A DNA stretch of 64,000 nt from Massalongia carnosa. Lineage: Eukaryota. Below the pieces are notes generated by a model. That model made no database searches. It saw only the letters and a list, made by a program, of their open reading frames with translations, and had not been told where the DNA came from. The first letter of the stretch is position 1. Each line of letters opens with the position of its first letter. This document shows, piece after piece, positions 14,549 through 20,632 of the stretch. A program made the position numbers and the translations under genes. Where the stretch lies: positions 1,240,001 to 1,304,000 of the forward strand of contig OZ287072.1 of the NCBI GenBank assembly GCA_965645245.1. Reading direction: 5' to 3'.

Positions 14549-16281
14549 ATGGATTCCGATGATGAATTTATGAGTGGCTTGTCTAGCCAAGATGGAGACT
14601 TTGGTGGAACACAGGAGAGTGATGATGGCAGTCTTGGTGAAGGTTAGTGAATTAGTAGTTGGCTCATTATACTGTCAAGCCTCCCCGAGACTGACTCGCC
14701 ACGCTTAACATGCTAGATTTCGACGACGATGATCCAGATGTCGGTTTCTCCCAAGACAAAGATCCTATCAAGCCGGGAAGAAAACCTTACGAGGTAGAGT
14801 TCAAGGTCCTCGGGCCTACGGATATACAAGCACACCAAGACAAGCAGATAGACGAGGTATCTGCTATATTAGGGCAACCTTCAGAAGCCGCTGCCATCCT
14901 TCTGAGACACCTTCGATGGAACAAAGAGAGACTCATAGAGGCCTATATGGAGAAACCAGACGCAACGCTTGAAAACGCTGGGCTAGGCCCAGATGCAGCC
15001 CAAACCCCAAGAACTAAGGTGATCAAAGGTTTTACATGCGGTATCTGCTGTGAAGATGAGCCCGGGATGGAGTCGTATGCATTAAAGTGTAACCATCGAT
15101 ACTGCGTCGATTGCTACAGGCTATACCTTGCGCAGAAAATAAGGGATGAAGGGGAAGCGGCAAGAATCCAGTGCCCGACTGCTGGGTGTAATAGAGTTGT
15201 AGACTCAAAGTCATTAGAGCTACTCGTTGCAGATGAGCTCAAAGCGAGGTACGAAAAATAACCTAAGGCTGTGATGGGCGACTGATAACTCGTTACTGAT
15301 AACTCGTTTAGGTACCACACTCTCTTAACGCGTACGTACGTCGATGACAAAGAAAACCTAAAGTGGTGTCCAGCGCCAGAATGCGAGTATGCTGTTGATT
15401 GTAGTATTAAGAAGCGAGAGTTTGCTCGAATAGTACCTACCGTCGCTTGTTATTGTCAGCATCGCTTTTGCTTTGGTTGTACGCTTAATGATCACCAACC
15501 GACGCCGTGCTCCTTAGTGAAGCAGTGGATCAAGAAATGCGAAGACGACTCTGAGACGGCCAACTGGATATCGGCGAACACTAAGGAATGCCCGAAATGT
15601 TCATCCACCATCGAGAAGAATGGGGGTTGCAACCACATGACCTGTAGAAAATGCAAGCACGAGTTCTGCTGGATGTGTATGGGATTATGGTCGGAACATG
15701 GCACAAGCTGGTATAACTGTAACCGGTTTGAAGAGAAGTCTGGTCTTGACGGACGTGATACTCAAGCCAAATCACGACAATCGCTTGAGCGTTATTTGCA
15801 TTATTATAACCGGTATGCAAACCACGAGCAGTCGGCGAAACTCGATAAGGATTTGTACTTGAAGACTGAGAAGAAGATGATCAACCTCCAAACGGCATCC
15901 GGCATGTCTTGGATCGAGGTTCAATTTTTAGAGACCGCTTCACAGGCACTCCAGCAATGCCGACAGACACTGAAATGGACATATGCTTTTGCATATTACC
16001 TACAAAGGAATAATTTGACGGAGATCTTTGAGGATAACCAGAAAGATCTCGAGATGGCGGTGGAGAGTTTGAGTGAGATGTTTGAAAAGCAAACTACAGA
16101 GCTTTCTGCGCTCAAGGGAGTCATGATGGATAAAACCTCTTATTGCAACAAGAGGAGAATTGTTCTCTTAACAGATACGGCCGAAAATCTCAAATCTGGT
16201 GAGTGAGGCTTGGGATCACTTCTTCGTCGCCACTCTAATAAGGTACTAGGTGAATGGCAATTTAATGTCGAAGTTACCTGA
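14549..16281 (+). CDS. ARI1: RBR-type E3 ubiquitin ligase, Ariadne family (ARI1/Hel1/Dbl4)
   Basis: Acidic N-terminus MDSDDEFMS; RING1 (CGICCE...CNHRYCVDC); IBR (KWCPAPEC); RING2 (TKECPKC...GGCNHMTC...CKHEFCWMC); Ariadne domain (LERYLHYYNRYANHEQS); three GT-AG introns. Confidence 0.93.
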
Positions 16282-16930
16282 TATGGATCAGCCTTAGATC
16301 AGGGGTGGATATTGTGTCTTATTATCCGGGAGTATTGTGTTCATATAGCATTAACAAGGAGCGTAGTATAGGGTCGTTTGCTAATGGCATGACTATGAGA
16401 TTGCTGCGGTTTCTGTGTATTATTTGCGTTCATCTAGAGCAGATGGAGAACCGGCGTCTCTCCCGTCGCAAATACTTGTACCCACACAAGTTTTTAAAGT
16501 CAAGCCTAGAATAGGATTATCTGCTTTATGGCTTTCGCCACGATTATATCATGACAAAAATCGCACGAAGACTGGGTGGCGCCGTGAGCCAGAAGTAAGT
16601 AATCGGTAGATAGACGTCAATGAAAACACAATGGACTATAACAGGTCTTATAGGGCGGTGAACGGAAGGAAAGCATAGCTACTTACCTCGACGTAATAAA
16701 TGGATAACGAACAAAAAAGTACTAGGTACATATTTAAGGGTTATTCCTTTTCAATATCACAAGCGCAGCGCACTAACACGGCTTAGTTATCGGGCCGGCT
16801 TGTGCAGACCCTTTCTAGTAGTACTAGTTTCTGGAGTTCGTGAACAATACCTCGATGCTTCTTCAAATGTTAATTCAACTGCCTGTTTCACTGATACTCA
16901 AAGATAATGCGCCGAATTTGGGATTGATTC

Positions 16931-17319
16931 ATGCACCCTTTCTCCATATTGACCCTAGGTATCTTCGTCGCAGGCTATATTACTGCGCGTTGGGATCTAG
17001 TAACACGACTTTACGAACTTGCCATCTTTGCCATTGATCACGGTGTCGTAGTAAGTCACTATTTTAGGTTGACTATATATGGAGAAATCACTGACAGCGT
17101 CGGTCTAGACCCGTGCTGCCAAGGGATTTGCAATTCTATCCATATTCTTCTTCCTCTTCATCTTGCCAATTGAGCGCATTGCAGCACGCGAGGTCGCCCG
17201 AGTGAACAAACTCCTCCGGATACTTTGTTGATTGATGCTAATTTAAATCCTAGCATCCTCGATCCGCTGTTGATGGTATATCGGCTCGAGAACAGCTGAG
17301 GCGACGAGGTTCGTTCTGA
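16931..17319 (+). CDS. Small (about 92 aa) three-exon hydrophobic protein immediately upstream of GPI1
   Basis: Exons 16931-17050, 17109-17201 and 17254-17319. Introns GTAAGT...CTGAC...TAG and GTGAAC...GCTAAT...TAG. Translation: MHPFSILTLGIFVAGYITARWDLVTRLYELAIFAIDHGVVTRAAKGFAILSIFFFLFILPIERIAAREVARHPRSAVDGISAREQLRRRGSF*. Confidence 0.75.
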
Positions 17320-17337
17320 GCCTATGATAATGATATT

Positions 17338-19653
17338 ATGGTTGCTGCCAACAGATTATTGAGAGTATTTTGGCCGTCTGATGTCCCAAGGAGTGACAAA
17401 GAAGGTGTCTTGGTAGGATGGAGGAATTCAGATCTAGATATCTTCGTGGTATCTATACTTCAAGACGTGGAGGTAGAGCTTGTGAAGTCCTAGGTATTTA
17501 TGAAGTTGCTGAGCAGGCCGAGTTAGTCACAATGCGTCGAGCAAGCGCTTCAGGTTGGAGAATTGTTTCGAAACAGTCCACACCCAATTGGCCGGTTAAA
17601 TCAGCTATGTGGGAACTCTACAATGTGTGTACTTGGTGCGGTCAACCTAACGACCTATGGAGAATCCTTCGACGCCAACTATCTTCTCACTTATACAGAC
17701 GGCTCGTCTGTATTTCCACGGATTTTATGTTCCACTGAAACCCGAATATCTGTACAGATTATTATTTTTGACAGGCCATCGCCAACTCGTATGCAGTACA
17801 TGTCTCAAAGTCCTATATCTCTTGCTTTAGGAGACAATGCTTTAGGGAAAAGCGGTTTAGTTGACTCTCCTAGTGCCGATGAGATTGAGGACGCAGGTGA
17901 GGAAGCTCGAAAAGCAGAGTTAGTAAAAAAGCTACAGCTACATACCGTGGTTAGGCACTTGCCGTCTCAAAAGGAGCAATCACTTCCGACTATTTTAAAT
18001 CAAATCAATTGCTCTGCGGAATTGGCACAGCTTCTAGCAAAGAATATTCACCTTCTCGGGGCTCGTCCGAAGAGAAGCCAGAGTGTTGGTGAAATGGTGG
18101 TAGAGTCCGCAACAACATTTTTGGACTATATCATTGGTGTGGGATGGCACCTCCTGGTCGCTTGGATCTATCCTGTCTTGACTAGGGCCTTTGTGATAGG
18201 TTTGGTCGGCCATCGTATCGTGGCCGAAGTAGTGCTTCGAGTACTCGAATGGCGCCCTCACCCTGAATCTGCGGCTTTGAAGGATATCTCAGCTACAGCA
18301 CAGCAGGTGGATATACGTCTACAGCAATTCTGCTACTGGCCAATCCAATACCTGACTTTACGCAAGCGAAAGGATGATTGGGAGAGCGTCACGGATAGGC
18401 ATCCAGACTATATTCGATTTTATAACAGCCTGTGGCTGGTAGCAAACGATGTTATAATTGGTATTGCTTTAGGATCCTACATCATCGACAATGCCGGCTG
18501 GGTTGCATACCAGATAAACAAAGTGCTGAGCGGGTGGACTGTGGAAGGCTTGCGTGACATGATTTCCTGGCTCATGGACTGGCCTGCTGGTCTTAAGCTT
18601 AATAACGAACTTGCAGCTTTCCTTGGCGATTTGTTTTTATGGGTTATCGATCACTGGAGAGGTAAGTCTTAATTCTCAATGATCGTGGATAACTACTCAC
18701 ATTAGTAGGATGTGTCGGAAGCCTTCGACCTTATCTACCTCATGTCATATACTTCATCGGGTTTTCAAGCTTCGCTGGAGCTACTATGCCAATCGCCTTG
18801 TTCTCAGACCTCCTCTCGCTGTTGACTATTCACATATACTGTTTCTATACCGCGTCAGCCCGTATCTTCCATTGGCAATTAACCATCATTGTGTCCTTGT
18901 TTCATTTATTTAGAGGTAAGAAGCACAATGTTTTGCGTAATCGAATAGATTCATGCGACTACGACCTCGACCAGTTGCTATTAGGCACAATCCTCTTCAC
19001 GCTACTTTTCTTCTTGCTACCAACTGTCATTGTCTTCTACCTTACTTTTACATCGGCTCGGATGGCTATCATATCTCTTAAAGCATCATTAGATACTTTG
19101 CTGGCCTGTTTAAACCATTTCCCTCTATTTGCATTGATGTTGCGAGTAAAAGACTCGCGGCGTCTTCCAGGTCAGTAATCCACCCCCTTGGGTTGTAGCA
19201 ACATGCTCATGCATTTTAGGTGGCATATGTTTCGATCTCCAAGATACCCCTTTAGATTCTCCGCAGTTCATTGGCTCTGGCAATTCATCCTCAACCTCAT
19301 ACATACTTCTCAAAGTAAGTGCTTCTGTTTGAAATTAGTCTTAGGTGTGCTAATGCAAACCTAAGTCAGTCCCGTTATCATTACGAGCCATGTTCAATCA
19401 ATACTTTCAATTGGGCCATCGTATTCGCAAGCACTATCTATCACCAAGCGTCATTTTGTGTTTGATTACCGGCCGCTTTGTCCCACCAATCCATCGCAAA
19501 AGCCTATACAGCTTACAATACAGTATGCTTCCAGCTCAGCGTGCTAGCATCTTCGAGGTGTGGCAGCGATTAACAGAAAAACCCTCATCTAAGACCGATA
19601 GCGAGATCAAGAAGCCTGATTATTTGATAGTGCCTTGGCATCATAGGCAATAA
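17338..19653 (+). CDS. GPI1: GPI-GlcNAc transferase subunit Gpi1 / PIG-Q
   Basis: N-terminal LLRVFWPSD...GVLVGWRNS; core YIRFYNSLWLVANDVIIG, WPAGLKLNNELAAFLGDLFLW, LFRGKKHNVLRNRIDSCDYDLDQLLLGTILF; several GT-AG introns. Confidence 0.93.
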
Positions 19654-19996: not shown

Positions 19997-20632
19997 CTAT
20001 CTAACGGGCCTCGCAGAAAGCCATGATGTGTCCGGGGTTATCGGTTTCGTAATCAACCCTTCGCATCCAGCACACATGTATACCCTCGCTTCTCTCTCAA
20101 TGACGCCACCGCACCGGCACTTCAGCCCTATATACGTATTCAAAGATCCCAGCGCATACGGCCCCCCAATCATTTCCCTTCTCCAGTCCATCTCCCCGTC
20201 CCTTTTCGCGTTCGCAATCTCATATGATTCGGTCTTGCAGCTCCAGCACAACCAACCCTCTGCACAGCGGCACCCCGACTTCCCCTGGATCACTAGCCCG
20301 CGAACTACAGCTATGTGCATAGCCTTCCTTCCGCAATCAATGCACAAAGGTAGCATCTTTCCCTTCATCAGGTGTGGTGTTGTGGCAACAATATGATGAG
20401 TTGCCTGGTTGCGACAAGTTAAACACACATTGTAGGGTTTAGGGTGGCGAGATTTTCGTTCGCATGGGCGGACCATTGTATCATGGGCTGCTTCTGGGGC
20501 TTCCACGAGGGAGAGGAGTGAGATTACGAGTTCTTTGCTGGAGAAGAGATGTGGTGTTTCCGAGCAGGTGAGTGTTACTTTTGTACTTTTGTTTGCCCGG
20601 GAAGGACAGGTATTCTTTCGGGATGAAGACAT
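19997..20632 (-). CDS. Cysteine-rich hypothetical protein (about 211 aa, putative Zn-binding)
   Basis: Intronless ORF from CACC-ATG at 20632. Motifs CLTC, CIDC, CRC, CWSC, CRC and CAGC. Confidence 0.55.
   Translation of the reverse strand: MSSSRKNTCPSRANKSTKVTLTCSETPHLFSSKELVISLLSLVEAPEAAHDTMVRPCERKSRHPKPYNVCLTCRNQATHHIVATTPHLMKGKMLPLCIDCGRKAMHIAVVRGLVIQGKSGCRCAEGWLCWSCKTESYEIANAKRDGEMDWRREMIGGPYALGSLNTYIGLKCRCGGVIEREARVYMCAGCEGLITKPITPDTSWLSARPVR

Follow-up and report, generated by a model that had tools for sequence, protein, structure and literature searches.

A Conserved Membrane Microprotein Gene Adjoining GPI1 in Pezizomycotina and Its Probable Organization as a Compact Expression Unit

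Control of the GCN4/ATF4 type is exerted through delayed reinitiation after a short upstream open reading frame (ORF), and the small proteins Eri1 of yeast and PIG-Y of mammals are about 70 residues in length. Human PYURF-PIGY is cited as a characterized bicistronic transcript in PMC13303939, and PMC11291117 describes leaky-scanning bicistrons of green algae that are marked by a weak start context at ORF1 and by few AUGs before ORF2. According to PMC7049704, leaky scanning in fungi, Neurospora included, is programmed by start context. Here, a locus that invites comparison with these systems was analyzed in a 64,000-nucleotide (nt) stretch of DNA from Massalongia carnosa (NCBI GenBank assembly GCA_965645245.1, contig OZ287072.1, positions 1,240,001 to 1,304,000 of the forward strand), referred to throughout as the window. 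The locus comprises a three-exon ORF of 92 codons for a small membrane protein, the microprotein (positions 16931–17319 of the window), and GPI1, which encodes the PIG-Q homologue Gpi1 and begins 18 nt further on with the ATG at 17338. All of these coordinates, first given in an earlier note on this DNA, were confirmed.

On balance, the microprotein gene and GPI1 probably constitute one compact expression unit on a dicistronic mRNA, from which Gpi1 would be translated by ribosomes that have bypassed the start codon of the microprotein, and the two proteins would share a joint role. No description of the gene pair, or of obligate bicistrons of such a kind in the fungal lineage, was found in the literature searched, most subscription journals lying outside that search.

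Conservation of the microprotein gene and its linkage to GPI1

Eighty metagenomic loci were fetched, and a script recovered an intact exon model in 71 of them in addition to the window, yielding 53 distinct coding sequences. All 53 span 91–93 codons and carry introns, where present, after codons 40 and 71. Intron lengths across both positions range from 47 to 123 nt in the other loci, and one or both introns are absent in some lineages. Several lineages have independently lost introns from both genes (L003, L005, L012, L014, L021, and L025, as compared with the window); intron 1 alone is retained in L001 and intron 2 alone in L066, with the two-ORF layout and the spacer unchanged. Column entropies at codon positions 1, 2, and 3 are 0.55, 0.26, and 1.45 bits, respectively, such that the third position is ∼5-fold more variable than the second, and mean pairwise identity among homologues is 78% for the protein and 70% for the DNA. 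A 40-residue query consisting of exon 1 retrieved 1002 database proteins, the best 120 listed being 88–100% identical. Conservation of this order, with the exon model intact in 71 loci and the window, is far beyond what would be expected by chance.

Proteins of exactly 92 residues composed of the same three parts are present in three independent NCBI annotations (Penicillium malachiteum, Aspergillus puulaauensis, and Aspergillus desertorum, all from genera of the Eurotiomycetes) and among several assembly-derived proteins. The C-terminal tail, SAREQL(R/K)RRGSF, is nearly invariant among homologues. An AlphaFold2 model of a homologue, built from nine homologues, consists of a helical hairpin (helices 3–36 and 39–71) followed by a short helix (82–88), with a mean predicted local distance difference test score of 80.7. 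Hydropathy peaks of the microprotein fall at residues 1–19 and 41–60, and the two hydrophobic segments ascribed to it from the window are supported by the AlphaFold2 model. Judged from its conservation, the 92-codon ORF genuinely encodes a protein, a predicted two-helix membrane microprotein, and the gene is ancestral to Pezizomycotina.

The downstream gene was assigned as GPI1 by Pfam matches to PF05024 in two exons, with E values of 2e-39 and 1.5e-60 and scores of 136 and 205 bits against a curated cut-off of 22.2; the assignment is also backed by the window ORFs and by alignment with annotated Gpi1 proteins. The Gpi1 N terminus, recognized by an L-R-V/I-F-W-P motif, follows the microprotein stop codon in 73 of the 80 metagenomic loci. 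The remaining seven contigs end before this stop codon or ≤86 nt after it, and four of them (L013, L037, L065, and L080) still show the beginning of Gpi1 by eye. The last ∼35 nt of L080 cease to match after the Gpi1 start and, judged by their translation alone, resemble a sequencing adapter; this end is probably an assembly artefact. Not one microprotein gene without GPI1 was found among the 80 loci, and the spacer from the microprotein stop to the first Gpi1 ATG measures 6–32 nt across 52 distinct junctions.

The pair was seen in eight classes of Pezizomycotina, namely Lecanoromycetes, Lichinomycetes, Coniocybomycetes, Leotiomycetes, Dothideomycetes, Sordariomycetes, Eurotiomycetes, and Pezizomycetes, the last by way of a divergent member, P0272, which led to Gpi1 models of Tuber melanosporum, Tuber aestivum, and Ascodesmis nigricans. 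The flanking gene varies, being Ariadne in the window and in a Seirophora model and a gene for a PF05254 protein in models from Podospora, Fusarium, and Diplocarpon. Adjacency of the microprotein gene and GPI1 is universal, and the two are never separated in any lineage examined. The earlier note had pointed out that the window leaves no room for a terminator plus a promoter between the two genes and had suggested that their adjacency be followed across Pezizomycotina; the same constriction holds throughout the subphylum, and the linkage is conserved.

In the databases, the microprotein is carried as "hypothetical," mislabelled as "PIG-Q," or fused to Gpi1. Among 309 candidate proteins of >140 residues carrying exon 1, 278 were significant; of the 120 listed, 72 are Gpi1 models that contain PF05024 and range from 374 to 898 residues in length. 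Eleven full-length fused models were compared, and their joints lie variously at the end of exon 1, at the end of exon 2, or within exon 3. Given that the joints differ from model to model, the fused entries are gene-prediction fusions of neighbouring genes and do not represent a natural fusion. Misannotated entries of this type are widespread (e.g. P0170, P0222, P0238, P0143, and P0161), and some take in the gene on the 5′ side as well, which is that for an Ariadne E3 in Seirophora lacunosa (Teloschistales) and that for the PF05254 protein in Podospora and Fusarium.

The fused models could also be read as the product of alternative splicing, in which microprotein exon 1 or 2 would be joined to GPI1 exon 2 to give a Gpi1 isoform with two extra helices, and the intron phases in the window (all phase 0) are compatible with such joining. 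This is very improbable. The junctions of the fused models differ from species to species, lineages without these introns retain the two-ORF layout (L003, L005, L021, and L025), and the isoform would lose either the conserved Gpi1 N terminus or the conserved microprotein tail. In practical terms, the 72 long matches, in which filamentous ascomycete Gpi1 is combined with microprotein sequence, are wrong fusions with arbitrary junctions.

A fusion protein might also arise at the level of translation or RNA, by stop codon readthrough, UGA recoding, or RNA editing, as the earlier note had envisaged. In the window, the microprotein TGA is in frame with the GPI1 ATG, with no further stop codon between them, and 17 of the 52 distinct junctions share this in-frame arrangement. 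The other 35 are out of frame (+1 in 27 and +2 in 8), and all three stop codons are used (TAG in 25, TGA in 20, and TAA in 7). The nearest relatives of the window have almost the same spacer, at 19 nt as compared with 18 nt. Given that the frame varies and that three different stop codons are used, a readthrough or editing fusion is refuted, and its probability is regarded as vanishingly small; the spacer-length and stop-identity comparison put forward in the earlier note, with lengths that vary over all three frames, went against its own proposal. On this comparative evidence, the in-frame stop in the window is a matter of chance.

Start-codon signals and models of expression

The microprotein AUG stands in a weak context in every one of the 53 distinct sequences: position −3 is a pyrimidine (T in 46 and C in 7), and position +4 is always C. 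A purine at −3 precedes the Gpi1 AUG in 41 of 46 (G in 27 and A in 14); in the window, the bases at −3 and +4 of this AUG are A and G, respectively. None of the 53 distinct proteins contains an internal Met. The out-of-frame ATGs that occur within the microprotein coding sequence (at +59, +82, +101, and +232) all have a pyrimidine at −3, and the ORFs that they open end before the Gpi1 AUG, with the sole exception of L013, where the contig ends.

Codon 37, an NAY codon for His, Tyr, or Asn, follows a GAN or AAN codon and mostly precedes Gly, and thus T at its third position would complete an ATG in strong context, preceded by a purine at −3 and, wherever the next residue is Gly, followed by G at +4. 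A T-ending codon 37 was observed in 0 of the 53 sequences. At the control positions, by contrast, CAT encodes His72 in 32 of 48 sequences, and TAT encodes Tyr28 in 36 of 53, in which it makes an ATG of weak context. Such a pattern of start contexts would fit a dicistronic mRNA that is scanned through to GPI1.

Further upstream, 44 of 51 distinct loci carry an ATG ≤60 nt 5′ of the microprotein ORF. In 18 of the 44 it lies at exactly −25, and in 41 its −3 base is a purine. The ORF opened by this ATG ends before the microprotein AUG in 31 of 44 cases, after 3–9 codons (4 codons in 23) and ∼10 nt from the AUG. Its position and start context are conserved in most lineages, and the encoded peptide is not. 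The stop codon of the upstream ORF overlaps the microprotein ATG by one base in L001 and L045.

A single mRNA would present to the scanning ribosome, in order, a tiny upstream ORF in strong context, the microprotein ORF in weak context, a spacer of 6–32 nt, and the GPI1 ORF in strong context. Gpi1 would be synthesized by ribosomes that pass the microprotein AUG by leaky scanning or, alternatively, by ribosomes fresh from the tiny upstream ORF that would be unready to restart at the microprotein AUG (delayed reinitiation). The way in which ribosomes are shared out between the cistrons would set, or allow control over, the amount of microprotein relative to Gpi1. In the glycosylphosphatidylinositol (GPI)-N-acetylglucosamine (GlcNAc) transferase of the endoplasmic reticulum (ER), the microprotein would work alongside Gpi1, whether as a small subunit, as a factor in assembly, or as a regulator. 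A bicistronic transcript was among the proposals of the earlier note; the tight coupling to GPI1 and the start-codon architecture both fit it, whereas the single transcript itself is something that we infer.

Expression from two overlapping monocistronic mRNAs would provide a different explanation. Here, the GPI1 start site would lie inside the microprotein gene and the end of the microprotein mRNA inside GPI1, and the tight spacing would reflect genome compaction or a shared promoter region, with no translational coupling. In Zymoseptoria, apparent polycistronic reads have been reported to stem mainly from overlapping transcripts of same-strand neighbours. Nevertheless, this arrangement is considered rather unlikely: the spacer stays within 6–32 nt over the 52 junctions and eight classes while introns and flanks change freely, the whole 279 nt 5′ of GPI1 is coding in intron-less lineages, and both the pairing of weak and strong start contexts and the avoided AUG at codon 37 would be unexpected if the small ORF were never scanned through.

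On a dicistronic mRNA, ribosomes might instead reach GPI1 by termination-reinitiation, finishing the 92-codon ORF and restarting at the GPI1 AUG. The consistently short distance from stop to start would suit this route, and the common AUG ∼8 nt 5′ of the GPI1 AUG could belong to a restart zone. Its probability is judged to be low. Restart after a long ORF is inefficient, the synonymous sites of the last 12 microprotein codons vary freely (third-position entropy of 0.87–1.94 bits), and the conserved weak context of the first AUG and the avoided codon-37 AUG would be left unexplained. No conserved RNA tethering motif of the viral-restart type was found in these 12 codons beyond coding needs, which speaks against the route.

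Several observations weigh against the organization favored here, in which both proteins would be made from one mRNA by ribosomes passing the microprotein AUG. The case for co-transcription is built from spacing and start-codon signals, and an Iso-Seq study of the ascomycete Zymoseptoria judged its polycistronic transcripts to be rare read-through products. Sequences related by descent underlie the start-context counts and the Fisher P values of the codon-37 test (0 in 53), which overstate independence. Depletion of out-of-frame ATGs (1.06 observed in the microprotein coding sequence against 3.5 expected from base composition) is not significant with the protein held fixed, the synonymous nulls being 1.23–1.30; this lack of significance overall at synonymous sites would favor overlapping mRNAs. 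Of the 53 sequences, 38 contain the ATG at +82. A spacer ATG located ∼8 nt 5′ of the Gpi1 ATG, and often preceded by a purine at −3, occurs in about half of the distinct loci, and the short ORF that it opens over the Gpi1 start would compete with that start; it could be a further brake on Gpi1 translation. With regard to the tiny upstream ORF, the 60 nt preceding the microprotein ORF contain no ATG in 7 of 51 loci, and in 13 of the 44 loci that have one, the ORF that it opens runs across the microprotein AUG.

The proposed joint role is open to similar objections. The microprotein has no family match of any kind, and a published table for Colletotrichum graminicola lists an ERI1 candidate, GLRG_01976, that does not adjoin GPI1 (GLRG_02030). 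Given this separate candidate, a missing Eri1 is not needed to explain the microprotein gene.

Among the metagenomic sequences, L025 resembles a transcript in its dimensions, being 2868 nt long with a 293-nt leader, both ORFs uninterrupted, and a trailer of ∼100 nt, and is not distinguishable from intron-poor genomic DNA. L016 lacks all three introns of its 83–86% identical relative L032, and L021 is likewise intron-free. Given that none has a near-identical genomic partner and that intron-less small genes also occur on genomic contigs of 65–250 kb, L016, L021, and L025 are not callable as transcripts. Contigs from four sequencing runs were DNA-like and without joints, three of them being identical to the window, and are uninformative on transcripts.

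Table I. Positions of the microprotein-GPI1 pair and associated elements in the window
Feature	Positions	Strand	Description
Tiny upstream ORF	16907..16927	+	6 sense codons and TGA; ATG with A at −3; ends 3 nt 5′ of microprotein ATG
Microprotein exon 1	16931..17050	+	Codons 1–40; start context T at −3, C at +4
Intron 1	17051..17108	+	Phase 0, GTAAGT...TAG; position after codon 40 conserved
Microprotein exon 2	17109..17201	+	Codons 41–71 (31 codons); second hydrophobic helix
Intron 2	17202..17253	+	Phase 0, GTGAAC...TAG
Microprotein exon 3	17254..17319	+	Codons 72–92 (21 codons) and TGA at 17317–17319; basic tail ending RRRGSF
Spacer GCCTATGATAATGATATT	17320..17337	+	18 nt, microprotein stop to GPI1 ATG
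Short out-of-frame ORFs across GPI1 start	17324..17362	+	Spacer ATGs at 17324 (12 codons) and 17330 (10 codons), both ending at 17362
GPI1 (PIG-Q homologue) coding region with introns	17338..19653	+	Exon 1 at 17338–17472; stop at 19651–19653

The two spacer AUGs that had been said to open a 12-codon ORF over the GPI1 start were verified, as was the end of that ORF (Table I). The ATG at 17330 is an example of the spacer ATG at −8; others, also out of frame, are found in L001, L003, L005, L010, L020, L045, L068, and further loci. The neighbour 5′ of the pair is an Ariadne/IBR RBR-type E3 ligase, the last exon of which lies at 15637–16206 (+) and matches PF19422 and PF22191. Its recurrence beside the microprotein in the Seirophora lacunosa model is a hint of lecanoromycete origin for the window. 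Just 3′ of GPI1, a 211-residue Cys-rich ORF at 19997–20632 (−) matched no Pfam family at E ≤ 1.

Possible function and comparison with known systems

Neither the microprotein exons at E ≤ 1 nor five full-length 92-residue homologues at E ≤ 10 matched a Pfam family, a sequence search of the PDB with the microprotein gave no chain below an E value of 0.1, and a Foldseek comparison of the microprotein model with the PDB returned 0 matches. In the ESM Atlas, the microprotein matches its own family clusters alone, which are auto-named "pig-Q," and a profile search of 1.84 billion protein representatives gave 257 matches, the best 150 of the 257 all being close family. Gpi1 was also without a match in a PDB sequence search, and this search thus gave no solved GPI-GlcNAc transferase for comparison. 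A predicted complex of Gpi1 (P0170, residues 44–760) with the microprotein (P0098) scored 0.00 in a run made without alignments or controls, which is evidence neither way.

Given that the pair is never separated in the lineages examined, the most likely function of the microprotein is a joint one with Gpi1 in the GPI-GlcNAc transferase, a role to which the obligate linkage over the whole subphylum and the membrane-hairpin build both point. The RRRGSF tail resembles what is presumably a basophilic-kinase type of site. Cross-talk of the transferase with Ras and with cAMP and cAMP-dependent protein kinase (PKA) signalling is described for yeasts, and it is a matter of speculation that RRRGSF serves as a kinase site fitting this cross-talk. 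A more elaborate scheme is possible but doubtful. In this scheme, a Pezizomycotina-wide, almost unvarying, and so far unrecognized 92-residue component or regulator of the transferase would be produced with Gpi1 from an operon-like mRNA, the mini upstream ORF and the start contexts would set the ratio of the two proteins, and RRRGSF would couple cAMP-PKA signalling to GPI synthesis, as Eri1 does via Ras in yeast.

If the favored organization is correct, the mRNA encoding the microprotein and Gpi1 would rank among the most ancient and most strictly conserved two-protein messages of fungi, one that has readable translation signals and could be tested directly in Aspergillus or Neurospora. The microprotein would also be a hitherto missing participant in the essential opening step of GPI-anchor synthesis, a pathway pursued as an antifungal target; regulatory roles of small subunits are known for the enzyme of this step.

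With Eri1 of yeast and PIG-Y of mammals, the microprotein shares a small ER-type build with two hydrophobic segments and a genetic tie to the first GPI step, and the earlier note had linked it to these proteins. The microprotein might even be their Pezizomycotina orthologue, diverged past recognition. The common build of two predicted hydrophobic helices would accord with orthology, as a feature that discriminates weakly, and Eri1/PIG-Y is described as the least conserved subunit, with 14–22% identity among yeast, Candida, and human, and human PIGY as likewise derived from a bicistronic transcript. Orthology is nevertheless decidedly unlikely. There is no detectable sequence similarity and no Pfam match, and close family alone appears among the best 150 of the 257 profile matches; a protein of 92 residues that is extremely conserved stands in contrast to the fast-evolving Eri1/PIG-Y; and the table for C. 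graminicola has its separate ERI1 candidate. The proposed link found no backing in Pfam, PDB sequence, or Foldseek matches, and PYURF-PIGY serves as an analogy.

The green-algal leaky-scanning loci, as described in PMC11291117, resemble the microprotein-GPI1 locus in the weak context of ORF1, the stronger context of ORF2, the few starts between, and the short distance between the ORFs. They differ in that AUG depletion is partial here and in that an extra conserved upstream mini-ORF precedes ORF1.

The likeness to GCN4/ATF4 lies in the short upstream ORF of good context located ∼10 nt before the next AUG, from which rescanning ribosomes would skip to the downstream start. Unlike in those systems, the ORF that would be skipped codes for a conserved protein and is not an inhibitory upstream ORF. 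Any dependence of the microprotein-GPI1 unit on eIF2 phosphorylation would be pure conjecture.

As in human PYURF-PIGY, one mRNA would carry the code for a small protein together with that for a component of the GPI-GlcNAc transferase pathway, the single transcript being inferred in the present case. The microprotein has no sequence relation to the human proteins, and the order is different: the PIG-Y subunit is the small downstream ORF, whereas here the large Gpi1/PIG-Q is downstream and the small protein upstream. As a eukaryotic two-protein mRNA, PYURF-PIGY would nonetheless be the described system closest in spirit to the microprotein-GPI1 pair.

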